Translations under genes and position numbers: made by a program
Source: Candidatus Saccharimonadota bacterium
Lineage (GTDB): Bacteria; Patescibacteriota; Saccharimonadia; Saccharimonadales; UBA4665
Assembly: GCA_016699935.1 (NCBI GenBank)
Contig: CP064992.1
Location: 540,001-572,000 of the forward strand
Direction of reading: 5' to 3'
Length of the DNA: 32,000 nucleotides
In this document: one piece after another, positions 4,520 to 28,277 of the stretch
How positions within the stretch are numbered: the first letter of the stretch is position 1
How the letters are laid out: the number at the start of each line of letters is the position of its first letter
Notes under the pieces: generated by a model
What the model was told of the DNA's origin: nothing
The model's input: the letters and a program-made list of their open reading frames with translations, nothing else
Databases searched by the model: none

Positions 4520-6224
4520 TTGGTCGCGCAAGGTAACATGGTTCATTGGTCGACACCTAAACAGGCGCGTATAGTTGGTGGCGTATTGTTGGTCATTGTC
4601 ATTGCCCAGTGTGCGTATCCTGCAAATAGAACGTTACCTTTTGTGCGCCTTGATGGTAAGCGGATTGGCTATCAGTCTGGAAAACAGATTTCCCAGATAC
4701 TTATAGACCAGTACAGTAATGTGCCTCTTACGTTGCATGTAGAAGGGCCCGCCAAAGACCAGTCGCGAAAAACTACTGTGGCGCCCGCAGGCTTGCAACC
4801 AGACATCGACCGTATCTTGCATGACATCAAGGCCTACCCGTGGTGGCAGCGGCTGATCCCCTTTAGCGGGCTCGTCAAAGGACTCTCCCACAATCAACGG
4901 GTAGTAGTGGCATTTGACGAACAACGTTTTAAAGAATATGCCGAGGGTGAGCTCAAATCTTGCAAAGTTTATCCCAAAAACGCCGGAGTGAAGGTACTCG
5001 AAGGGGCCGTAGTGCTTGACGCTGCAAAGAAGGTCAGGAGTGTTCGCTCGATACGCTGCATAAGGAGCTGCAGACTGTTTCGCTTGAGCCAAATGGAATC
5101 CACGCCTACGTAAACGCCAATACAATCAAACCGCTTCGATCGGACAAAGATGTAGAAAGGAAATTGCAAGAGGCCCAGACGCTTACCGAACGCAAACTAT
5201 CATTGAAACTTGACGATAAAGATTATCCGGTCGCAAAGTCCACCCTCGCCTCGTGGCTAGTCATAGCCGAAGATCCTACAGATAAAAAGAAACTGACGAT
5301 TGATGTTGATACGAAGCTAATCCGCGACTATTTGACCGAAATGCAGAAGAAAATATACATTGCGCCAGGCGTTACGACAGTGCGCACGACAGACGGTGTT
5401 GAGACAGATCGCACGGAGGGTGTTTTTGGGCGCGGGCTTAACTTTACCGCTACGGCCGATGCGCTAAAAAAACAGCTCCTAGACGGTAACGGCATTGTAG
5501 CCGGCTCGCTTATTACGCTGTCTCCGCGAGTGGCTTACCTGCGTTCGTACTCCGCTTCGCGTGCCGGGTTGCAGGCGTTACTGAATGATATTGTCAAAGA
5601 TAAAGGTGATTATGCGATATCAGTACGTCTCAGCGATGGCACTACGGTGAGTGCCAATGGCACAAAACGGTATCATCCGGCAAGTACCTACAAACTGTAT
5701 GTGGCGTATAGTTTTCTGAAGCGAATTGAAAGTGGTGCTATCAAATGGGATGATGCGGCCACTGCGGGCAAAAAAGTATGAGCCAGTGCTTTGACGTCAT
5801 GATATTAAACTCCGACAACACGTGCGCGGAATGGCTCGGCGAGAAGATTGGCTGGTCCAACATTCAAAACGAAATCCGGGCTCTCGGACTGAGCAATACG
5901 AGTACGATTCGGGGGGCTATGTACTCCACGCCCGATGATGAAACGCTATTTTTACACAAACTGCAGTATGGCAACATTCTGAAAACATCCGAACGCGATC
6001 GTTTGCTCGATGTCTTGAAGCGCCAAATCTACAGGCAGGGGATACCTGCAGGTGTGCGTGTAACGGTAGCTGATAAAGTTGGGTTTCTCGACGGAAAACT
6101 TCATGACGCTGCTATTGTGTATGGCAGCAAAACGTATATGCTCACGATTATGTCGCAAGGAAGTTCGTGGGCGCAGATTGCCGATGCAGCGAGGCAGATT
6201 AATGAGCAGTTGAACAGAATGTGA
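4520..6224 (+). CDS. Membrane-anchored serine hydrolase with a class-A beta-lactamase/DD-peptidase-like C-terminal domain; two frame breaks (about 5030 and 5770-5775)
   Basis: Three track ORFs (4520-5113, 5164-5781, 5778-6224) read as one protein. An N-terminal TM segment (VGGVLLVIVIAQCA) is followed by the SxxK motif (PASTYKLYVAYSF), an SDN motif (MILNSDNTCAEWL) and a KTG-like DKVGF. The second break is repaired by adding an A to the run at 5770-5775. Confidence 0.65.
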
Positions 6225-6372: not shown

Positions 6373-7448
6373 TTATTTACTGACGTTGAATTTGAACTCA
6401 ACAACGTCTTCTGGCTGCATAACATAGGTTTTGCCCTCGGTGCGGACTTTTCCGGCGGCACGCGCATTGGGAAGGGAGCCAGCTACAATGAGGTCCTGGT
6501 AGTTTACGATGTCTGCGGCGATAAAGCCGCGTTCAAAGTCGCCGTGGATCACGCCGGCGGCTTGTGGGGCGGTCGCGCCACTAGGAATCGTCCAGGCTCG
6601 GACTTCTTTATCTCCAGCCGTGAGGTAGCTCTGGAGTCCGAGTGTGTCATATGCGGAGTGTATGAGCTGGACGAGACCGGATTCTTTCACATTGTAGCTT
6701 TCGAGTAGCTCGCGACGGTCGGCTTCGTCCAGGCTGCGAAGTTCGTCTTCGAGTTTGGCGCAGACGAAGAGTGCAGGGGCCGGTGAGACAAGTGTTTTCA
6801 CCTGGGATTGGAATTTTTCATCTGTCAGCTTCGCTTCATCTAGATTGAACAAATAAATTATAGGCTTCAGTGTCAACAGTTGCAGTTCCTGGCGTAGCCA
6901 GCTGCACGATTCATGATTCATAATTCCAGGTTCACTCCAGAGCGGACGTCCCTCGTCGAGGATAGATTTTACCTGTTCTACAAACTCTACAAGCGGTTTG
7001 AGTTTCGCATTTGCTTTCGCCTCTTTTTCGAGCCGGGGAAGTCGGTTTGTCACGGTCTGGAGGTCGGCCAGGACAAGTTCGGTATTGATAACATCGATAT
7101 CTTTGGCTGGGTCATGCGCGTCATCAACGTGTGTGACATTGGGGTCGTCAAATGCTCGTACGACTTGGACGATAGCGCCGCAGGTACGGATGTGCGCGAG
7201 GAATTGGTTGCCCAGGCCCTCACCCTTGCTCGCGCCAGCCACGAGCCCAGCGATGTCTACAAAGGTTACCGTGGCGGGTTTGATGGGCGCGATGTGGTAT
7301 AGCTCGCTCAGTTTTGAAGCCGCTCATCAGGCACGGGCACAATGCCGGTGTTCGGCTCGATGGTGGCAAATGGATAGTTTGCTGCCAAGATGTTGCTATC
7401 GGTCAGCGCATTGAACAGCGTCGACTTCCCAACATTCGGCAAACCCAC
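6373..7448 (-). CDS. ychF: Ribosome-binding ATPase YchF; native first 5 codons displaced to 28141-28156 by the island; one frame break at the T-run 7312-7315
   Basis: The minus strand reads (I)[45 protein letters not shown], then [42 protein letters not shown]... through to the TGS-like C-terminus ...[18 protein letters not shown]. In the YchF frame a TAG lies two codons upstream of the GTG at 7448-7446. Confidence 0.9.
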
Positions 7449-9052
7449 TATGCGCTATGCTCAACATCTAACCCTACCTTTTTTACAGTTAATGATGTTG
7501 CATACGCTGGAATCTTTCCGCATATTCTTACTTTCTCCTTCGTTGCTATTACTTTATCAACTATTTTACGTACCGTAAAAAGCTTTTCATCGTAGCCCAG
7601 ATTTTCTAGGTACTTCTTAAAAGGCTCTACAGACGATTCTAGATCTATCTCTTGCAGTTGGGCTAACTTATTCGCTTCTGGCTTGTTGATCAGGTCTAGC
7701 AGTTCTTTACGACGCCTTGCAACACTATTCATTTGATCTGTGTATACGACTTCAGACATAGTGTCCATGCCCCAAGCTTTCACGTAACGACGTTCTTCTT
7801 GTTCAAGTGCTTTTTTCTGCAAGAGTAGCTCATCTTTTTTAGGGCTTTGACCTGCAATGAGCTTTTTTTCTTCTGCGTAACGATCAAGCTGCTTCTGTAA
7901 TAGGGTAGGGTCTGTCATTAATTCGCAAAGTTTGGACCAACCTACTGCATCTAGTACCTGTACATTCACTCCTGCTTCAAAGCATGTGCGTGGCTTAGGG
8001 AACTTGAGTAGACGGTCAGTACAGCGGTAGTAGAAATGACCATTTTGACCCTCACCAGTACGGGAAGTACCGCAAGCACACTGTATCAAGCCACCGAACA
8101 AGTAAGGATTCTTCTTGAAGCGTTGACTTAGCTTACCGTTGCTCTTAATTTGAGATTGAACCTTTTGATACAGTTCGTCACTAATAATGCGTGGTGCTTC
8201 TACCTCTAGCCATTCATCACGTGGTCTGGTTTTACGACTACCTTTTAATGAATGACGGTGCTGGTATTTCTTCTGAGATTTAGCCATAGGATTTTTAGTT
8301 ATTACACTCTCAGACTTGTAGTAATAATGTTTACCAATATAGGTTTCGTTTTTCAACATACGGTGAATTGGACCATTCGACCATGTGTCACGCTTCTGTT
8401 TTTTTGGCGGTATGCCCAAATCGTACAAACGTCGTATGACTTCTTTAATAGAAACGCACTCAATGCCAATCCATTCAAATATCATTTGTACGACTTTGGC
8501 TTCTTCTTCGTTAATAACAAATTTGCCATTAATTTTGTCGTAACCTTTGCCTTTGATTGGCACATAATCATACCCGTAAGCTGCTTGATAGCCTAGTAAC
8601 TTCCCAGAGCGTACTTTATTGAGTTTCCCAATACGAAAGCGTTCAGAAATCTTCATACGCTCATACTCGTGGAACATTCCCATTACACCGCCCAAAAGCT
8701 TTTCTTCAGGTGAGACACCATTAATGTCGTGTAAGCTATGAAACTCAATGCCTAATTGGATTAGTTCCTGTATTACTATTTCCTGATGGAAGAATATACG
8801 GGCAAGGCGACCCTTGTCGTAGACGTATAAAATATCAAACTTCTTTTCAAGTGCGTCAGCTCGCATAAGATCAAGTGAGGGACGTTCTAGTATTGCACCT
8901 GACCAACCCTCGTCAATATATATACAGCTTTCCAGAAGGGTATTACCGTCAGCTTTAATTTTTGGCTTAATCTCCGAAAGTTGGTTTTGTACAGTTTGCT
9001 CTTCTTTTTGAAGTTCGGTACTAACCCTTGCGTAAAGTGCTGCACGTAACAT
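7448..9052 (-). CDS. Large serine recombinase (integrase)
   Basis: Intact 534-aa ORF. The resolvase-type N-terminus is [12 protein letters not shown], with the catalytic Ser context. A recombinase domain follows, then a zinc ribbon ([20 protein letters not shown]) and a C-terminal coiled-coil-like region. The stop TAG sits exactly at the island-host junction. Confidence 0.9.
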
Positions 9053-9267
9053 TACTTTGACTCCTTTGTTTTTTTGGTACTGCGTTTTGATATGAATGAC
9101 TCTAGTGCAATCTGGCTTATACGATAGCCTTTGCCTAATTTAAGGGCTTCAAGATCACCGTTTTTTATATATGTAAGTACACTTTGCCAGTGAAGTTTAA
9201 GTAAATCTGCAACTTCCTGTACTGTGTAATATTTCTTGTCTATCATTATAATCTCCATTATAAACAT
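9052..9267 (-). CDS. Excisionase-family (MerR-like) helix-turn-helix DNA-binding protein
   Basis: YYTVQEVADLLKLHWQSVLTYIKNGDLEALKLGKGYRISQIALESFI is the typical excisionase-type HTH signature. Its stop overlaps the recombinase start. The true start may be the internal ATG (MIDKKYY...). Confidence 0.7.
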   Translation of the reverse strand: MFIMEIIMIDKKYYTVQEVADLLKLHWQSVLTYIKNGDLEALKLGKGYRISQIALESFISKRSTKKTKESK

Positions 9268-19363: not shown

Positions 19364-21543
19364 TTTCAGCCCAGACTAATATTCAGAAGATCTTAAATGC
19401 ATCAGAGACTTATTATGAGATACCAAATTTTCAGCGGCCATATGCATGGCAGACAGGTAATGCGAACGAGTTTCTAGTAGATCTTGAAGACAGCGTAGCA
19501 AAACGCAAAAATCATTACTTTGGCACGGTCGTTTTAGTTGAAGAGACTGCAAGTACTTATTCAGTAGCTATCATTGACGGACAACAGCGTGTCACTACAT
19601 CGCTACTCATGGTAACGGCTATATATCATCTAGTAAAAAAAGACCCGTCACTAATTGAGAATCCTGAGACAACACCAGAGCTAATACGTGATCGCTACCT
19701 GTTTAATGCAAACATCGACAAGAATAAAGTGAAGCTTCGTACTGTTACGACTGACAACCAGATCTTGCAGCACATTTTTGATAAAGACGGTGAAGAGTCA
19801 CGACTAGAGCCACGAGAACGAATGAGTAACATCTATCAGGTGTACTCGACCTTTCGTAAGTACTTTTCGACTCGCAAGGGTCTAGATAAATACATCGAAG
19901 GACTAAAGTTGTTTGAAGTCATTTCAATTACTCTCAATGGTAATGACGATAATCCGCAGAGAGTTTTCGAAAGTATAAATTCAACGGGTAAGCCACTAAC
20001 AGACGGTGACAAAATCCGTAACTTTGCTCTCATGCTAGGTAACGACAAGCTACGCAATCATGTATACGACAATTATTGGTCGATCATTGAAGAATCACTT
20101 GTGGATTCGAACAAAGATAATATTACTGATTTCTTTCGTAGTTACATCATGTCGAAACGACAGGCTATTGTTCGCTTAGATGCGGTTTATCCTGAGTTTA
20201 AGAAGCAGTTTGATAGGCAGGTAGGAGAGTCACAAGAAGAAGTCAAAATTGACGCTTTCTACGCTGATATAGTTGAGTCGTTGGGCTTCTATAGGCTTCT
20301 GAAGCTCATAGATACTGATGATTTTGAAAGTCAGTATAAGGGCATTTGTGAAACCATATTTAAGATGCGGTATCTTCAGATTGACCTATATATTCCTTTC
20401 GCTATGAACGTATTGCGTCATCACGCAAATGGCGAACTTACTGATCAACAATTCGAAGATGTGTTTAAGCTAATCGAGACATATTTCTCACGTCGTATCG
20501 TGAGCGGTATTGCTACAACCAGTGTGGACCGATTCTTAGCTTCATTACACAAAGATATTCTTAGTTATCAGAAAGATAGTCCTGACGCAGATTATGTCGA
20601 TGTTCTTCGTTATATTCTTCTAAATCGTATTGGTCAAACCCGTATACCTGATGATGCAGAATACGAAAATGCAATTCGTACTCGTGAAGCATATTACCAA
20701 AGGAATTCATTCCTTATTTACGTTCTTACAGCGGTTGAAGGTACGTCTAAAGAAGCTGTTCATACCTTGCACCAAATCTCAGACGCTAAGTTGAAATTGT
20801 CTATCGAACACGTAATGCCGCAAACACTCACAAGCAGGGACTGGCAAGAGATGCTAGGTGATGATTACGAGCGAATTCACCGTGAATATTTGCACACACT
20901 GGCAAACCTAACGCTCACAGGCTACAACTCTGAATACTCTAATCGGCCTTACGCAGATAAGATGCATCTTGAGATCAAAGATAAAAAGACTGGCGAAGTT
21001 CAGAATGTAGGATTCGCTGACAGTAAGCTTCCTATAAATGTGTGGATAGCGAAACACGATGTCTGGAATGAAGATACATTGAAAGAGCGTCAAGCATGGT
21101 GGGTAAAGAAGCTTAAAGACACATGGTCATTCCCAGTTACTTCGTTCAAACCTATCGAAGAAGACACATCTGTGTACTTACTTGAAGCTACAGACTTGAA
21201 GGGTAGGAGCATACGCTCAGTAGATGTATTTGGTGAAAAGAACTCTGTTACTACATGGTCAGAAGCTTTAGATACCATCACAGAGTCGATATATAACCGA
21301 AACCCTGAGTTTATCGAAACCATTAGTAATGATGAGTGGCTCTCGAAAATTATTCGTCAGGATGCGAGTGCGTTCAATAGCAGTGCAGAGATATTAGACA
21401 CGGGATATTTCGTGGACACTGGAAATGACACAAATACTAAGCTTCGTATTATCAACGCACTAGGTAAGCTATTCGGTCTGACTCAGGATGATATAAAGGC
21501 AGAATTGACCGCTGACAAGCATATCGAAGAAGACGAAGAGTAG
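19360..21543 (+). CDS. GmrSD-like DUF262/DUF1524 protein (type IV restriction-family architecture) with an extra C-terminal region of roughly 190 aa
   Basis: Intact 727-aa ORF. The DUF262 motifs are YEIPNFQRPYAW and IIDGQQRVTT. The DUF1524 His-Me-finger-like block is LSIEHVMPQT...LHTLANLTLTGYNSEYSN. Its start overlaps the upstream stop (ATGA). Confidence 0.85.
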   Translation: MISAQTNIQKILNASETYYEIPNFQRPYAWQTGNANEFLVDLEDSVAKRKNHYFGTVVLVEETASTYSVAIIDGQQRVTTSLLMVTAIYHLVKKDPSLIENPETTPELIRDRYLFNANIDKNKVKLRTVTTDNQILQHIFDKDGEESRLEPRERMSNIYQVYSTFRKYFSTRKGLDKYIEGLKLFEVISITLNGNDDNPQRVFESINSTGKPLTDGDKIRNFALMLGNDKLRNHVYDNYWSIIEESLVDSNKDNITDFFRSYIMSKRQAIVRLDAVYPEFKKQFDRQVGESQEEVKIDAFYADIVESLGFYRLLKLIDTDDFESQYKGICETIFKMRYLQIDLYIPFAMNVLRHHANGELTDQQFEDVFKLIETYFSRRIVSGIATTSVDRFLASLHKDILSYQKDSPDADYVDVLRYILLNRIGQTRIPDDAEYENAIRTREAYYQRNSFLIYVLTAVEGTSKEAVHTLHQISDAKLKLSIEHVMPQTLTSRDWQEMLGDDYERIHREYLHTLANLTLTGYNSEYSNRPYADKMHLEIKDKKTGEVQNVGFADSKLPINVWIAKHDVWNEDTLKERQAWWVKKLKDTWSFPVTSFKPIEEDTSVYLLEATDLKGRSIRSVDVFGEKNSVTTWSEALDTITESIYNRNPEFIETISNDEWLSKIIRQDASAFNSSAEILDTGYFVDTGNDTNTKLRIINALGKLFGLTQDDIKAELTADKHIEEDEE

Positions 21544-21545
21544 AC

Positions 21546-22697
21546 ATGGATACGTCTGGATACTTCGACCTAACAGTTCCAGAGAATAATATTGATTCGC
21601 TGACTATAAATCAGCAAGATCATTTTGATTGTAGTCTAGTGAATAATGCTACGGGCGAAACATACAAAGGGTTCATTCTTGCAAAATCGCCACAGGGCAA
21701 TAATTTAACGGTGTGTGATACAGAATTCAAACGTTCTGGCACTGACAATAAGTATCAGCCCCGACTGACATTTCGTCGAGTAGATGATGAGTTTAATGAC
21801 GTTAATGCTCCCGCAGGTTCTAAAAGTCGTAGGATACCGTTCTCAGACGGCTCAGATGGTTATCGGGAGTTTTGGAAAATGGTGGCATTTCTATTTAAGT
21901 TCAAAGAGACGATCGACTTCGGTGAGTTTGATGGAACCTACCAAGTAATATCTGCTGAACAGCTAAAAGAGTATATGAATAATGCTTCTAATAATGACGC
22001 AATTATTAAAATGGCTGATGAGCTTGAAATTGAAGTCTCTGAGTTACTTAGAACAAAATCTACAATTAGACTACTAAAGACCTATAAAGAAAAATTAGAA
22101 GAATTTATCGAGACAAATGCTTCTGAAACAGATGTTCAAAATTGGCTTGATGAAGACGGTCACAAGTACAGGCAGCAGCGATGCATGATATTTGGACTTG
22201 AGTATATAGACTTTCAGCGTGAAGGTTCGTTGAGTTCGAAAAAATTCGATGTACTTACTAGGGTAGGCTCTAAGTATGTGGACCACGTGCTTATTGAATT
22301 GAAAAGCCCAGCAGATGATATATTTGAAGTTACTCAATCTAGCAGTATTAATAACCCTACTAGCACCTATCAGATTCACAAGCATCTAGCACGTGCTATA
22401 CCTCAAATTCTAGAGTATAAGAGCACACTTGAAGCAAAGCCAGCAGGTGATGCGGAGTTGGAGGAATTAGGTATTAAAGGGCAAGCTCATATCGGGAAGT
22501 GCATTATTGTAATTGGGAAACATAGTGATGATGCACGTTGGAAACAGAATCGAGAAAATCTAGTACGCTCTCTTGGATCTACACTAGAGATTTGGACATA
22601 TTCAGAGCTGTTCAATAAGCTTTCCTCAACGATTGAAAATCTAGAACGAATTAAAGAGCACGAAGAACCTGCTGAAGATTTATCGGACTGGTTTTAA
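21546..22697 (+). CDS. Shedu-like DUF4263 nuclease-family protein with an unrecognised N-terminal domain
   Basis: Intact 383-aa ORF. The C-terminal half has a PD-(D/E)xK-like pattern typical of DUF4263: ETDVQNWLDEDGHKY...KKFDVLTRVGSKYVDHVLIELKSPADDIF...LARAIPQILEYK...GKCIIVIGKHSDD...LEIWTYSELF. Confidence 0.7.
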   Translation: MDTSGYFDLTVPENNIDSLTINQQDHFDCSLVNNATGETYKGFILAKSPQGNNLTVCDTEFKRSGTDNKYQPRLTFRRVDDEFNDVNAPAGSKSRRIPFSDGSDGYREFWKMVAFLFKFKETIDFGEFDGTYQVISAEQLKEYMNNASNNDAIIKMADELEIEVSELLRTKSTIRLLKTYKEKLEEFIETNASETDVQNWLDEDGHKYRQQRCMIFGLEYIDFQREGSLSSKKFDVLTRVGSKYVDHVLIELKSPADDIFEVTQSSSINNPTSTYQIHKHLARAIPQILEYKSTLEAKPAGDAELEELGIKGQAHIGKCIIVIGKHSDDARWKQNRENLVRSLGSTLEIWTYSELFNKLSSTIENLERIKEHEEPAEDLSDWF

Positions 22698-24178
22698 TGA
22701 TGATGCAACTATCAAAATCTGATTACATGCTTTATCTCGCACACCCTGCATGGTTGTGGATGAAAAAACATGCAAAGACCTTACTGCCAGCTATAGACCC
22801 TGCAACACAAGCAATTTTCGATACTGGTCACGAATTCGAACAGTACGCAGAAGCTTTATTCCCAAGTGGTGTCACGCTTGGATTTAGTGATTATGATGAG
22901 TATCTTTCATTACCTGAGAGGACCACACGGGCACTAGACGATGGAATTCTCACGATATTTCAGGGTAGATTTGAGCACGAACAACTAACTTTTATTTGTG
23001 ATGTGATTCAGGTCGTTGATGGTAAAGAGATTGACCTGATTGAGATTAAGTCGAGTACAAGTGCTAAGCCTGAGCATATTACAGACCTTGCGTTTCAGAT
23101 GTTCGTTTTAGAAAAGTGTGGGTATACCGTAAGAAATGTAGCGGTAGTACACGTCAATAATCAGTATGTTCGTAATGGTGAAATTGACGCTAAGCAGATC
23201 ACGTTTAGAACTGATGTCACTGATGCAGTTAAGGCTGCGAAAGATTTTACGATAACAAAGATCGACGAAGCATTAGAAACAATGTCTCTGACTGAATGCC
23301 CAGATGCATCTCCTCTACATGCGAGCACTAAATCATTTGGTGATTGGTTGCAAATTTACAAACACTTAAAGAACCCAAAGGCTGGAAGTATTTACGACTT
23401 ATGCCAGATGGATGCGAAGACATTAAGTAACCTTCAACAAAATAACATTACACACGTAAAAGACATTCCACCTGACTTTGTTCTGAAGCCAAAGCAACGA
23501 CTTCAAGTTGAGGCACTTCGACAGGGAAGACCTACGATCAGTAAAGACAAAATCAAGTCATTCTTAGATTCATTTAGCTACCCTCTATACTTTTATGATT
23601 ACGAAACATTAAGTAGTTTAGTGCCTTACTTTGATGGTCTAAAGCCTTACCAACAGTTACCGTTTCAATATTCGATTCATATTTTAGACAGCCCAGATGC
23701 AGAGCTAAGACATGAAGAGTTCTTGCATCGTGATAGTGCAAATCCTGCTGAAGCACTAACGAAATCTCTCGTCTCACATATAGGGGATGAGGGGACAGTA
23801 CTTGCGTGGAATATGGGTTTTGAAAAGAGCTGTAACACATTACTTGGTACGATAGTGCCAGAGTATGCAGATTTCTACAGTAAGCTTAATGAAAGAATTG
23901 TAGATCTAATGATTCCTTTCTCGCAGAATTGGTATGTTGATGCTGATTTTTGTGGGAGTGCATCTATCAAGAAAGTCCTACCCGTACTCGTACCATCTCT
24001 GTCACACAAGGACCTAGATATTTCTGATGGTAGTTCAGCTCAGAGGCTATGGATGGAAGCTATTCTTGATGGGAAGCGACCTGACGAAAAAGAAAAGATT
24101 CTTAATGACTTGCTCGATTATTGTAAGCTCGACACACTTGCTATGGTTGAAATATTTAACGTTTTACGAAAAATATAG
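22697..24178 (+). CDS. DUF2779 domain protein (RecB/Cas4-like PD-(D/E)xK N-terminal part and an RNase-H-fold-like C-terminal part)
   Basis: Intact 493-aa ORF. The N-terminus LSKSDYMLYLAHPAWLWMKKH is the typical DUF2779-family start. It also contains EIDLIEIKSSTS and the C-terminal YFYDYETLSSLVPYFDGLKPYQQLPFQYSIHIL. Its start overlaps the upstream stop (TAATG). Confidence 0.7.
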   Translation: MMMQLSKSDYMLYLAHPAWLWMKKHAKTLLPAIDPATQAIFDTGHEFEQYAEALFPSGVTLGFSDYDEYLSLPERTTRALDDGILTIFQGRFEHEQLTFICDVIQVVDGKEIDLIEIKSSTSAKPEHITDLAFQMFVLEKCGYTVRNVAVVHVNNQYVRNGEIDAKQITFRTDVTDAVKAAKDFTITKIDEALETMSLTECPDASPLHASTKSFGDWLQIYKHLKNPKAGSIYDLCQMDAKTLSNLQQNNITHVKDIPPDFVLKPKQRLQVEALRQGRPTISKDKIKSFLDSFSYPLYFYDYETLSSLVPYFDGLKPYQQLPFQYSIHILDSPDAELRHEEFLHRDSANPAEALTKSLVSHIGDEGTVLAWNMGFEKSCNTLLGTIVPEYADFYSKLNERIVDLMIPFSQNWYVDADFCGSASIKKVLPVLVPSLSHKDLDISDGSSAQRLWMEAILDGKRPDEKEKILNDLLDYCKLDTLAMVEIFNVLRKI

Positions 24179-24214
24179 TGGTGCGTGTGGTGGGGTAGCA
24201 ATTATCTGGAAAAA
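24170..24214. repeat. Left copy of a perfect 45-bp direct repeat (aaaatatagtggtgcgtgtggtggggtagcaattatctggaaaaa)
   Basis: Identical to 27794-27838. It overlaps the last three codons and the stop of the DUF2779 gene. Confidence 0.95.
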
Positions 24215-24313
24215 GTGAACGAACATTAACCATACAAACACACTGTAGGAGCGTCCCAGAGGTCATAGGGGGTTTTTAAGACAAAAGATGAGATATTCAC
24301 TGTGCTTGCTTAG

Positions 24314-24327
24314 TACCCCTAGGGGTA
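24314..24327. promoter_or_regulatory. CsoR-type operator palindrome TACCCCTAGGGGTA overlapping a -10-like TATATACT
   Basis: A perfect 14-bp GC-core palindrome lies 14 nt upstream of the csoR-family start codon. It matches the general TAC-C4..G4-GTA architecture of CsoR operators. Confidence 0.6.
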
Positions 24328-24340
24328 TATACTTTAAGAC

Positions 24341-24625
24341 ATGAGAATAGACATAAAAAAGCGGGCAAGTCACCGAACTAAAATCATTGAAGGTCAGATT
24401 AAGGGCTTGCAGAAGATGATAGATAAAGAAGATTACTGCATGGATATTCTGACCCAGTCCTTAGCCATTCAAAAGTCATTAGCTTCGCTTCACAAATTAG
24501 TATTAGAAAATCATATAACTACTCACATCACAGATATGCTTGCTTCTGGTAAGGAGAAGGAACAAACCAAAGCTCTTGAAGAACTATTGAAACTATACGA
24601 GCTTAATAACATTCGGGGTAAATAA
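24341..24625 (+). CDS. csoR: CsoR/RcnR-family metal-sensing transcriptional repressor
   Basis: Intact 94-aa ORF. RTKIIEGQIKGLQKMIDKEDYCMDILTQSLAIQKSL...LENHITTHI is the family signature. The ligand positions read Cys-His-His, not the Cys-His-Cys of classical Cu(I) CsoR. Confidence 0.85.
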   Translation: MRIDIKKRASHRTKIIEGQIKGLQKMIDKEDYCMDILTQSLAIQKSLASLHKLVLENHITTHITDMLASGKEKEQTKALEELLKLYELNNIRGK

Positions 24626-24627
24626 CT

Positions 24628-24993
24628 GTGAAGTATCTAAAAGTACTTAAAAGAGTGGCTTTGCTGCTTGCGGTGTTACTCCTAAATTCTGTGACTTTTG
24701 CTGCACATAGTTCAGCTATGCCAGTAATGGCTCACGATATGGCTGGGATGAACCATAAGGCTAATGACAATACCTCTTGTGCTACACAGTGTCGCACAGC
24801 CGTTTTTAACAAAGAAGATGCAATCAATTCACGTTACGATGAAGAAGATGACGAACCAGTCGTGCCTTTTTACTCACAGAACCAAGCTTGGCTATTTAGT
24901 GATACGCATGTAACTCAAAAGTTGTATGCAGACTCGATAAAGCCACCGCCTAAGATACCAATATATATTCTCTACGGTGTCTTTAGAGTTTAG
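24628..24993 (+). CDS. Secreted Met/His-rich hypothetical protein (GTG start)
   Basis: A signal-peptide-like N-terminus (KRVALLLAVLLLNSVTFAAHS) is followed by MPVMAHDMAGMNH. It lies between the repressor and DUF305 genes in the same orientation. Confidence 0.5.
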   Translation: MKYLKVLKRVALLLAVLLLNSVTFAAHSSAMPVMAHDMAGMNHKANDNTSCATQCRTAVFNKEDAINSRYDEEDDEPVVPFYSQNQAWLFSDTHVTQKLYADSIKPPPKIPIYILYGVFRV

Positions 24994-25043
24994 GATTCGT
25001 TTGTTAATTCAAACCGTATCTTAAACGTAAATCAGGAGAACCT

Positions 25044-25709
25044 ATGAAGAACAAGAACAACATAATCATCGTGGCAATAGTCGCAATCGTTGCCATTGCG
25101 GGGGTAAGTATCTACGCCCTTAATAAAGATAACGATATGATGGACGGCAACAATATGATGGGTGGCAACTCGTCACAACAAGCAAGTACTGTCACTGTAG
25201 ATAAAGACTCGGCTGATTACAAAATGTACAGCGAACTTAAGGGCGAAGACTATGACCGAATGTTTCTAGCTAATATGATTGCCCACCATCAAGGTGCGGT
25301 TGATATGGCTAAGCTGGCTCTAACTAATGCTAAGCACCAAGAAATAAAAGATATGGCTAACAATATCATCACGGCTCAGACAAAAGAGATTGGCGAAATG
25401 CAAAGCTGGCAGACAGCTTGGGGCTACCCTGCAAGCAGTGGTGAAATGATGATGGATCACTCCTCAATGGGAATGATGGACGATATGGCTGGAATGACGA
25501 ATAAGCTAAAAGGTTTAACGGGTGATGAGTTTGATAAGGCCTTTTTATCTTCAATGATTGAACACCACCAATCAGCTATAAATATGGCGTACTCAGGTAA
25601 AACCAATGCACAACATCAAGAAGTAAAAACGCTCACAGTAGCTATCGTAGACGCACAGAGTAAAGAGATTACTCAAATGAAGCAATGGCAAAAGGAGTGG
25701 GGCTACTAA
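25044..25709 (+). CDS. DUF305 domain protein (two repeats), membrane-anchored or secreted
   Basis: The motif is duplicated: DRMFLANMIAHHQGAVDMAKLAL...EIGEMQSWQTAWGY and DKAFLSSMIEHHQSAINMA...EITQMKQWQKEWGY. An N-terminal TM segment is present. Confidence 0.8.
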   Translation: MKNKNNIIIVAIVAIVAIAGVSIYALNKDNDMMDGNNMMGGNSSQQASTVTVDKDSADYKMYSELKGEDYDRMFLANMIAHHQGAVDMAKLALTNAKHQEIKDMANNIITAQTKEIGEMQSWQTAWGYPASSGEMMMDHSSMGMMDDMAGMTNKLKGLTGDEFDKAFLSSMIEHHQSAINMAYSGKTNAQHQEVKTLTVAIVDAQSKEITQMKQWQKEWGY

Positions 25710-25722
25710 GCCAGGAGTATTT

Positions 25723-27735
25723 ATGGATCATTCGCACCACGAACACCAGCATATGGAACATCAGGAACACGATAAACACGCTGGTCATTCAGTGGCTATG
25801 TTTAAGGATAAGTTTTGGTTGTCACTAATACTGACGATACCCGTCTTGGTTTATTCCGAGATGATACAGCAGTGGTTACACTTCACACCGCCAGCATTTC
25901 CAGGCTCTCAATACGTTCCATTTGTGTTTAGTACCATCATCTTTTTCTATGGTGGTATGGTGTTCATCAAGAGTGCGATGGGCGAATTAAAAGCTAGGTT
26001 GCCAGGTATGATGACTTTAATCAGCCTGGCAATCATCACGGCATACGTCTATAGCGTTGCGACACAGTTCTTTATCGGTGGTGAAGGCTTTTTTGGGAAT
26101 TAGCCACACTGGTGACAATTATGTTGCTTGGTCATTGGCTAGAAATGGCTTCGGTAGCAAAGGCTGAAAATGCTTTAGACGCAATCTCAAAGCTACTGCC
26201 AGATAAGGCTGAAAAGTTAGTTAATGGAAAACCAAAGATGGTTTTAGTAAGCGAACTAAGTGTTGGCGACTTGGTATTAGTAAGACCAGGCACGAGAATA
26301 CCGATTGACGGTGTAATAACAGACGGGACATCATCAATAGATGAGGCTGCTATCACTGGCGAGTCAAAACCTGTAAGTAAAACCGTCAATGATAAGGTTG
26401 TTGCTGGAACCGTAAATCAAGACGGCTCAATCAAAGTTAAAGTTACGGAACTTGGAGATGATACTGCACTTGCAGGAATTATGCGACTTGTTGCAGAAGC
26501 TCAAAGTTCAAAATCTAATGTGCAAGTATTGGCGGATAAGGCAGCTTTCTACCTAACCATCATAGCTATTGTTACAGCTATCGTAACGTTCATTGTGTGG
26601 CTAGTTCTTAAAGATGTTGGCTTTGCATTAGAGCGGTCAGTAACAGTTTTGATAATTGCTTGTCCTCACGCTCTTGGCTTGGCGATACCTTTAGTTGTAT
26701 CAATCTCTACTACACTGTCAGCGAAGAACGGTTTACTAGTACGAAAGCGATTAGCTCTTGAATCAGCACGTAAGCTAGACTGGGTGCTATTTGATAAGAC
26801 AGGTACTCTAACTAAGGGCGAACACGGCGTAACTGATATATGGGCAACCAAAGGTTACTCACAAGAAGACGTACTGCACCTAACAGCGAGCCTTGAGCAA
26901 AACAGTGAACATATTGTTGGTAAGGGTATCGTTCGTAGGGCAGAATCAGACCACGTACACCTTGATAAGGTTGCTGACTTCAAAGCATTGCCAGGCTTAG
27001 GCGTACAAGGAACTTTACACGGCAACGAAGTGTATATTGCAGCCAGCTACCGCTATATAGAAGAAAATAAGCTTACTGTTCCTAAAGAAATTGCCAATGC
27101 CGTAAAGCAAGCTGCCAAAGAGGGTAAAACCGAAGTTTATTTGATTACTAATAAAAAGGTAATTGGTGCTTTGGGTTTGGCCGACATAGTACGGGAAGAA
27201 TCGAAACAAACCATTAAAACCCTGCGAGAAATGGGGATTAAGACGGCTATGATCACTGGGGACACCGATGAAGTTGCTGCCTACGTCTCAAAGCAACTAG
27301 GACTAGACCAGTACTTTGCAGAAGTACGACCCGAAGATAAGTCTGCGAAAGTGAAAGAGTTACAAAAACGGTCAAAAGGTTGCAATGGTTGGTGATGGTA
27401 TAAATGATGCACCCGCACTTACCCAAGCAGACATTGGCATAGCTATCGGTGCCGGTACGGATGTCGCTATAAAATCAGCGGATATTATCTTGGTAAAGAG
27501 CAATCCTCAAGACGTAGTTAAAGTAATTAACCTGTCAAAGGCTACGTACAAGAAGATGACACAGAACTTAATATGGGCAACAGGCTATAACATCTTCGCA
27601 ATACCTCTGGCCGCTGGCGTATTGTACGGTGCTGGCATAGTGCTTGCACCTGCACTTGGCGCGATTCTAATGTCAGCATCGACTGTAGTAGTAGCCTTTA
27701 ATGCACAGCTTCTACGTAGAGCAAAGCTCAGTTGA
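25723..27735 (+). CDS. copB: P1B-type copper-transporting ATPase of CopB type (His-rich N-terminus, CPH motif); two frame breaks (T-run 26089-26094 and A-run 27364-27368)
   Basis: The N-terminus [22 protein letters not shown] is His-rich. Further motifs are TGES, the transmembrane CPHALGLA, the phosphorylation site FDKTGTLT, and [12 protein letters not shown]. The three track ORFs join when one base is added to each homopolymer. Confidence 0.9.
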
Positions 27736-27838: not shown

Positions 27839-28140
27839 AACTCCCGTGGCCTTGCTCAATTATATTTCGAGTAAAAGATGAACGACATTTACAACATACA
27901 TTGCAGACTAGTAAAGGTCTGGTGATAGTTAAATCAGTAGGAATGACAGTTCACCATTTACCACCAGCAGTTTCTTGTAGTTCTTTAATCTGTTGAGGCG
28001 TATAGCCTCGTGTTCTTTTATCTAAAGGAGGCATCGAGAAGGTTATATCAAATGGTATTGTTGCGTCTTGTGAATACCAATGCTTAGCATCTAACCCAAC
28101 CTCTCTATCAGAATTAAGTTGTGTTGTGTCTCTTGTATCG

Positions 28141-28156
28141 CTATAGAAAGACTCAT
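28141..28156 (-). other. ychF: Displaced native 5' end of ychF (ATGAGTCTTTCTATAG, MSLSI-) at the right island junction
   Basis: Fusing 28156-28141 to 7447 and downward on the minus strand gives [22 protein letters not shown] -10-like TATACT (28171-28166, minus strand) lies 9 nt upstream of the ATG. Confidence 0.6.
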
Positions 28157-28277
28157 GATGTTTTCAGTATAACAGAGGAGGGCGAGTCTTTTATAGGGTG
28201 AGTTTATGATTGTGAGTTTAGATAGTTTTTTTCGCTCGCACTCTCCTGTATGATGATATGAGGAAATCATAAGCATT

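Follow-up and report, generated by a model that had tools for sequence, protein, structure and literature searches.

When a mobile element carries its attachment site inside the gene for its own recombinase, does the enzyme end differently in the integrated and in the free state? This question is raised by a 20.7-kb island (7448-28144) in the window, which is the whole stretch of 32,000 nucleotides that we analysed, taken from a genome assembled as a single contig of 1.23 Mb (G000:C1:540001-572000). The island has a GC content of 0.41 against 0.49 in its flanks and is a mobile element that interrupts the housekeeping gene ychF within its opening codons. A preliminary description of this DNA had proposed that the recombinase might end differently according to the state of integration, or that the open frame at the far end of the island might be a relic of a longer recombinase gene. 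With a probability that we put at about 0.8, the island belongs to a family of Saccharimonadales elements that are integrative and probably also replicative, and whose large serine recombinase inserts them at about codons 5 to 7 of ychF. The comparisons of related sequences given below place the attachment site of the element (attP) within the recombinase gene, at its 3' end, so that integration swaps a conserved tail of the enzyme for a few out-of-frame ychF codons.

Table 1. Coordinates and strands of the main features at the two ends of the island and within it.
Feature	Position	Strand	Remarks
ychF, host part (B' side)	6373-7448	(-)	in frame from GTG 7448-7446
Large serine recombinase (int)	7448-9052	(-)	534 aa as assembled
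P arm 1	7449-7480	(-)	last int codons; in the other frame, TAG and substitute ychF start
Single extra base (C on the minus strand)	7452		alignment of P-arm copies
Excisionase-type HTH_17 gene	9052-9267	(-)	PF12728, 2.2e-11
Replication-type module (Toprim protein and neighbour)	9428-11181	(-)	Toprim_2, 1.5e-10
Cargo	12717-27735	(+)	defence and copper genes (Pfam matches)
P' arm 2 (cacaagacgcaacaataccatttgat...) and 40-codon tail SQDATIPFDITFSMPPLDKRTRGYTPQQIKELQETAGGKW	27951-28072	(-)	ends at TGA 27953-27951
63-nt module, tandem second attP	28073-28135	(-)	comparison with L053, G065 and G017
Displaced native ychF start (B arm)	28156-28136	(-)	ATG 28156-28154, MSLSIAI; sequence ATGAGTCTTTCTATAGCGATA
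Native ychF promoter-like motif TCTGTTATACT (extended -10 type)	28166-28176	(-)	by eye, 9 nt before ATG

The recombinase has an N-terminal resolvase-type catalytic domain with the serine nucleophile (PF00239 at residues 4-151, E 4.6e-27, with the motif YARVST near the N-terminus), followed by a PF07508 match at residues 182-305 (E 1.4e-18); the zinc ribbon PF13408 scores 18.9 bits, under its cut-off of 25.3, and a low-confidence AF2 model of the homologue P0004 shows long helices at 370-452. The canonical recombinase domains appear intact in the integrated copy, and only a C-terminal appendix would be exchanged. The stop codon of the HTH_17 gene overlaps the start of int, the same pair of genes is present in L053 and L058, and the HTH_17 protein is a candidate directionality factor. 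The gene order of the replication-type module is also kept in L058, and no virion genes were detected in the elements. The cargo comprises pieces of an MmeI-like methylase, a T5orf172 protein, GmrSD, a Shedu-like nuclease, DUF2779 and DUF305 proteins and a P-type ATPase, and several of these genes are broken by frameshifts.

Frameshifts occur along the window as a whole (at 900-1120, 5700-5850, 7300-7312, 14230-15760, 26050-26150 and 27330-27450), and the genes that they split are tlyA/FtsJ, a gene with a beta-lactamase fold, ychF, the MmeI-like methylase and the P-type ATPase (copB). In ychF the frame is broken downstream of the junction at an A-run around 7305-7312, where relatives encode ...DERLQKLSELY... 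and the window has CAAAAC. All seven indels examined adjoin A or T homopolymers, core genes are affected too, and the pattern looks like that of an indel-prone assembly rather than of pseudogenes. Claims based on open reading frames in this genome call for caution.

Near the right junction, the minus-strand segment GGTTGGGTTAGATGCTAAGCAT at 28101-28080 matches the recombinase terminus at 7478-7457(-) in 19 of 22 positions, as the preliminary description had reported. Even with up to three mismatches allowed, this partner is its sole match in the window, and shuffling (100 shuffles) gave an expectation of 0 such matches; the repeat is not a product of chance. By comparison with copies in other genomes, both segments are P arms of a family of large serine recombinase elements that target ychF. 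The P arm is a stretch of 32 nt which in one frame codes for the recombinase motif VGLD(V/A)(E/K)H and in another for a stop followed by a substitute ychF start, ATG-MLSI[A/G]I. At the left junction it forms the recombinase terminus (ggtagggttagATGTTGAGCATAGCGcATAGTGGGTTTGCC), with the substitute ATG at 7467-7465 (MLSIA..), and is homologous to the sequence ggttgggttaaATGTTGAGCATAGGTATT found upstream of ychF in 7 relatives; the right-hand copy reads ggttgggttagATGCTAAGCATTGGTATT.

The right-hand copy belongs to a 63-nt module, which consists of P' arm 1 (28135-28105, degenerate, caagagacacaacacaac..) and then P arm 2 (28104-28073), the latter with a TAG and an ATG (28090-28088, MLSIGI) of its own. 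The comparisons suggest that attP is double in the subfamily of the window, with its two cores in tandem at a distance of 63 nt (21 codons). This layout explains the 19/22 direct repeat, the weaker similarity that extends upstream of it with an indel, and the position of the apparent degenerate copy 38 nt inside the right junction. The module is 61/63 identical to that in L053, where it lies at the joint of two stacked elements, and 59/63 identical to that of G065, a different genus, where, on the attL side, the P arm of a recombinase with 92% identity is directly followed by the module, in frame, and the reading frame runs on into ychF. A solo copy in G017, which is of the same genus as the window and has the native start, the module and ychF without an island, is identical at 48/63 positions only. 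We considered that the module could be a vertically inherited scar of the host and rejected this, as it is closer to the copies in other genera (59-61/63) than to that in its own genus (48/63); the module evidently travels with the element. In a census of recombinase loci in metagenomes, of which at least 29 of 37 abut ychF, about 18 of the 21 loci of the window's subfamily carry the module, always on the attL side. In the window it lies on the attR side together with the tail, and from this difference in position we infer that the window used the upstream core, and G065 and most other copies the downstream one. Element Y of L058, whose recombinase is the 538-aa gene called there, likewise has module and tail at attR and would also have integrated through the upstream core.

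At the left junction, the sequence as assembled does contain the overlap that had been described, in which the recombinase stop TAG (7450-7448) shares a base with the ychF-frame GTG (7448-7446), and the G1 motif of YchF, GLPNVGKST, starts directly after the junction and this stop. The two ends share a block that reads ATAGCG[C]ATA at attL (7458-7449) and ATAGCGATA at attR (28144-36), and comparison of the junctions places the exchange within or beside the shared ATAGCGATA block, with the P arm mimicking the B arm. The bracketed C is the base at 7452, which falls in a gap column against all four related P-arm copies that were aligned (G065, L053, G017 and the window's own second copy); related P arms all read CATAGCGATA or CATTGGnATT, and the attL of the window reads CATAGCGcATA. 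This one base alone makes the int stop TAG, shifts the substitute start one base out of frame with ychF, and is the origin of the two alternative core alignments. The ATAG core with its offset of one nucleotide, which the preliminary description had preferred, is accordingly an effect of a base that related copies lack. When 7452 is deleted in silico, the recombinase becomes 551 aa long, reading 19 codons further into ychF (homologues have 538-573 aa), and the P arm gives YchF its own ATG plus six codons; a YchF short by five residues, as had been supposed, is no part of the family's design.

Base 7452 does not stand in a homopolymer, unlike the other indels examined; it may have arisen by a recent mutation that inactivated the copy, or else by an error of assembly. 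The exact 534-aa protein has no copy in the database beyond this genome's own contig, so the form that stops after HSA is without independent support, and the apparent overlap of stop and start at the left junction hangs on one base of doubtful status. Were the crossover to fall 3' of this base, the circle of the window would be out of phase.

The two flanks were joined, 40 relatives were searched, and beginnings of ychF were read. The starts fall into two classes. The first is the native start, ATGAGYyTnTCnATnGsnATnGTG.. (MSLSI[AG]IVGLP), preceded by TCTGTTAnAAT (L004, L005, L008 and L011), and the displaced start at the right junction of the window begins in the same way as ychF does in L004, L008 and L011. 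The second reads 'ggttgggttaaATGTTGAGCATAGGTATTGTG..' or 'ggttgggttaaATG..' (MLSI[AG]IVGLP) and has the 3' end of a recombinase gene directly upstream (L002, L003, L006, L010 and L012); it is to this class that the recombinase terminus of the window belongs. In these relatives the displaced end of the target gene is replaced by sequence from the element, in that TAG or TAA, ATG and MLSI[AG]I follow one another in the frame of ychF, whereas in the window the substitute start is one base out of this frame. The stop codon terminates any frame that enters from upstream and adjoins the new ATG. The P arm is dual-coding, with ..VGL(D/N)(V/A)(E/K)H.. in the recombinase frame and, in that of ychF, a stop followed by an ATG and six codons that replace the native start.

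The motif TCTGTTAnAAT, of the extended -10 type, stands 7-12 nt before the native ychF ATG in L004, L008, L016, L018, L026, L027, L047 and L049. This short distance suggests a leaderless or very short-leader ychF mRNA. A simple sigma-70 promoter scan of the window did not report TCTGTTATACT, which was recognised by eye, and some P arms hold the TCTGTTAnAAT motif inside the 3' coding region of int (e.g. TCTGTTAAAT in L047 and L012).

The minus-strand frame that begins at the right junction stays open, as had been noted, for 62 codons down to TGA 27953-27951; it reads DTRDTTQLNSDREVGLDAKHWYSQDATIPFDITFSMPPLDKRTRGYTPQQIKELQETAGGKW, measures 70 codons from stop to stop, and divides into one codon from the shared block, 21 codons of the module and 40 of a tail. 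The alternative alignment, in which the frame would be in phase with the recombinase, is supported: when the ends are joined, ..CATAGCGATA continues into CAAGAGAC.., yielding an ORF of 595 aa that ends in ..GGKW and includes the 62-aa extension. The attP joins made in silico are in phase in 4/4 cases (G042, G137, G085 and the window), which are related to each other and not fully independent; those of G042, G137 and G085 run from ..VGLNVEHWH into RYSVTQQPFELKLTMPPTDKGGRGY.. At the attR of G065, the native start is followed by CACAAGACGCAACAATACC and then by a tail 95% identical to that of the window.

Homologues also carry the WYSQDATIPF... tail contiguously. Full-length proteins with recombinase and tail are P0004 (584 aa, found in three metagenomes) and P0029 (589 aa), and an exhaustive HMMER search with the 62-aa peptide recovered six recombinase C-termini from proteins cut by contig ends that run on into the tail and represent several subfamilies (P0042, P0048, P0050, P0054, P0058 and P0064). 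At least eight database ORFs therefore have the recombinase end and the tail contiguous, and the reading frame is continuous across the join of P and P' and interrupted at attL. P0004 does not come from a free circle, as it is the upstream recombinase of two elements stacked before ychF, fused to the module and tail of its neighbour. No free circular copy was found, and a scan of viral contigs gave no relatives. The frame continuity in relatives supports a recombinase C-terminus that depends on the state of integration, and the tail continues the frame of int only where P and P' adjoin, which is the case in the excised circle and where stacked elements meet.

The proposal that a longer recombinase gene or an older element is in decay and has left the right-end frame as a relic, open by chance, has some facts in its favour, since the first 21 codons of the frame are indeed a duplicated attachment module and ends without a recombinase are common: 20 of the 29 tail-bearing genomes lack int at E<=1e-20, and G017 has the module alone. 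To this extent the earlier suggestion of a relic stands, for the 21 codons of the module, but it fails for the tail. A six-frame search found relatives of the tail in 29 of 151 genomes of the family, at 40-95% amino acid identity and in open frames of 35-100 codons; where both ends lie on one contig (G065, G042 and G137), the tail is on the strand of int, about 5-17 kb upstream of its 3' end, and in most of the copies read it is preceded by a displaced ychF start. The 40-codon pattern (ATIPFDITFSMPPLDKRTRGY..IKELQ..GGxW) is conserved as protein across genera, and the alignment reads ATIPF-x-[IL]-x-F-x-MPP-x-DKRTRGY-xP-x-x-I-x-ELQ...GGEW, with G and Y invariant. A codon alignment of 19 tail sequences, taken past the P' half-site, gives pairwise differences of 0.44, 0.36 and 0.62 at the first, second and third codon position, with 1043 synonymous and 2033 non-synonymous codon-pair differences. 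Such conservation across genera, with change mostly at third positions, and a tail that in all the joins is open and keeps the phase of int, make a relic very unlikely, and the codon comparison indicates that the tail is under constraint at the level of the protein.

The same codon pattern bears on the view that what is conserved is DNA only, be it a binding site of the recombinase, a terminator or some other element that acts in cis. The P' half-site does take up the first 25-30 nt, and the opposite strand has a terminator-like hairpin, which is not kept in G065 or L053; the codon-position pattern (1043 vs 2033), however, reaches about 90 nt past any plausible half-site, and we give this view hardly any credence. 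That the tail is instead a separate small gene at the end of the element, for example a regulator with its own start or with the displaced ychF start, its fusions to int being incidental, is suggested by the ORFs of 43-104 aa that gene callers annotate there and by the native ychF promoter and ATG, which point into the region when the element is integrated. Against it, the tail has no conserved start codon, and its sole internal methionine (FSMPP) is leucine or proline in about 40% of copies; conservation extends right up to the junction; in the ychF frame, a stop is met 21 codons from the native ATG, and the ATG of the module opens only 15 codons; and the frame of the tail is that of int, not that of ychF. 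We consider a separate gene very improbable as well. The hairpin itself, with its T-run, lies at 27994-28010(+), on the cargo strand, inside the tail codons RGYTPQ, and it is weaker or absent in G065 and L053.

Relatives of the tail were found neither in Pfam, with the 69-aa peptide, nor in the PDB, with a tail profile. The AF2 model of the tail alone has a basic turn (DKRTRG) and a helix (PQQIKELQETA) with a pLDDT of 77; in that of the full-length homologue P0004, pLDDT is about 31-34 at residues 490-555 and 50-67 in the tail, so that the last 95 residues are of low confidence and the tail is without a confident fold.

The P' arm and about 30 further codons code for the conserved tail; the free element would make a tailed enzyme of 595 aa, and the resident element a tail-less one. 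The tail, which may consist of an extended segment, the basic DKRTRGY turn and a short helix, could modulate the activity, stability or direction of the integrase, with the upstream HTH_17 protein as a putative excision factor. The predicted junctions of the circle are ...GAGCATAGCGATA to CAAGAGAC for core 1 and ...CATTGGTATT to CACAAGAC for core 2, and that of the empty site would be ...TCTATAGCGATA to GTGGGTTTGCC.

More tentatively, and with a good deal of doubt, these parts may be combined into a device with two states, in which the state of the DNA sets the tail and the tandem-core modules make the ychF start a stacking site like that of SCC islands. The tailed enzyme, made from the free circle or a stack joint only, would then be proficient in integration or differently regulated, and the tail-less enzyme of the resident element would depend for excision on the HTH_17 protein with which it is coupled. 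With attP cores in tandem, an element could leave behind or acquire a 'mini-att' module of 63 nt that is neutral to the frame, and each module would rebuild ychF and offer a fresh landing pad for cargo in these ultra-small bacteria. Serine integrases are valued because their direction is set by the enzyme together with a separate factor, and a natural family in which the state of the DNA edits the C-terminus of the enzyme would give a new handle on the control of direction and activity. A single 32-nt arm that serves as binding site, as codons of the enzyme and as substitute start of a host gene would be a dense case of functional overlap. In Saccharibacteria, the ychF gene would be a main gateway by which cargo for defence and metal resistance enters the genome, and it is a candidate site for genetic tools.

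A literature search for serine recombinase integrative elements in Saccharibacteria found nothing relevant, and the closest parallels come from other hosts. In the SPbeta-like Bacillus phage vB_BsuS-Goe14, attP is located within the gene of the serine integrase itself; on integration into spoVK the integrase is shortened by 131 aa, and the detached C-terminal part forms an ORF at the other end of the prophage (Kohm et al., bioRxiv 10.1101/2021.11.22.469490). The family described here resembles Goe14 in having a large serine recombinase, attP inside int and a tail ORF detached to the far end. Unlike Goe14, which loses 131 aa and disrupts its target gene, it has a tail of about 40 aa (62 with the module), its P arm rebuilds the start of the target gene, its attP is duplicated in tandem, and it resides in ultra-small Saccharibacteria, in elements without detected virion genes. 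In Myxococcus phage Mx8 (IntP/IntX), attP also lies within int, which on integration acquires a new 3' end and encodes a modified but still active integrase (review PMC6070905); unlike ours, this Int is of the tyrosine type, and the start of a target gene is not restored. The SSV-type ('suicidal') integrases of archaeal viruses and plasmids have the recombination site in the integrase ORF, so that the gene is split on integration (PMC7253208); they too are tyrosine recombinases, and the split, unlike that in the window, removes a large part of the enzyme. In mycobacteriophage BPs, attP is inside the repressor ORF, the proteins of the free and the integrated form differ in C-terminus and in fate, and the tail of the viral form is an ssrA-like degradation tag (PMC4557955). 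Here, in contrast, the split gene is that of the recombinase, and the tail, which ends in ...GGKW or GGEW, is not ssrA-like. None of these four systems rebuilds the 5' end of its target with the DNA that codes for the end of the enzyme, and none has tandem attP cores.

Stacking of elements was seen in L053/L058 and in G065. SCC-type islands at orfX/rlmH are likewise large serine recombinase elements that stack at one site and leave repeated att scars; their attachment site is the 3' end of the target gene, outside the ccr genes. The elements at ychF are like SCC in stacking at one chromosomal site and differ from it in having attP inside int and the 5' end of the gene as target. Two tail-type scars 1.8 kb apart are present in L045 (G065:C5, 778-912 and 2550-2756), each behind its own ychF-like start (MSNLSRGI.. 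and MSSISCGI..), and G111:C95 and G167:C6 have 4-6 tail-type copies at a spacing of about 0.5-1.7 kb; these multi-copy scars have the look of small cassettes at the ychF site, or of remnants of stacked elements. In L079 (942-1181), a metagenome copy, int and the module are followed by neither ychF nor the tail (...VGLDAKYWQVRGSKNKYKTKASQNYKNNC), and something else lies at the downstream core. In another subfamily (L050, G002:C72, and L006, G008:C11), a module of 102 nt (34 codons; ..EQVGYYANDS..KVGLNVEH) lies between the P-arm copies, and that of P0029 has 72 nt; every module length seen is a multiple of three.
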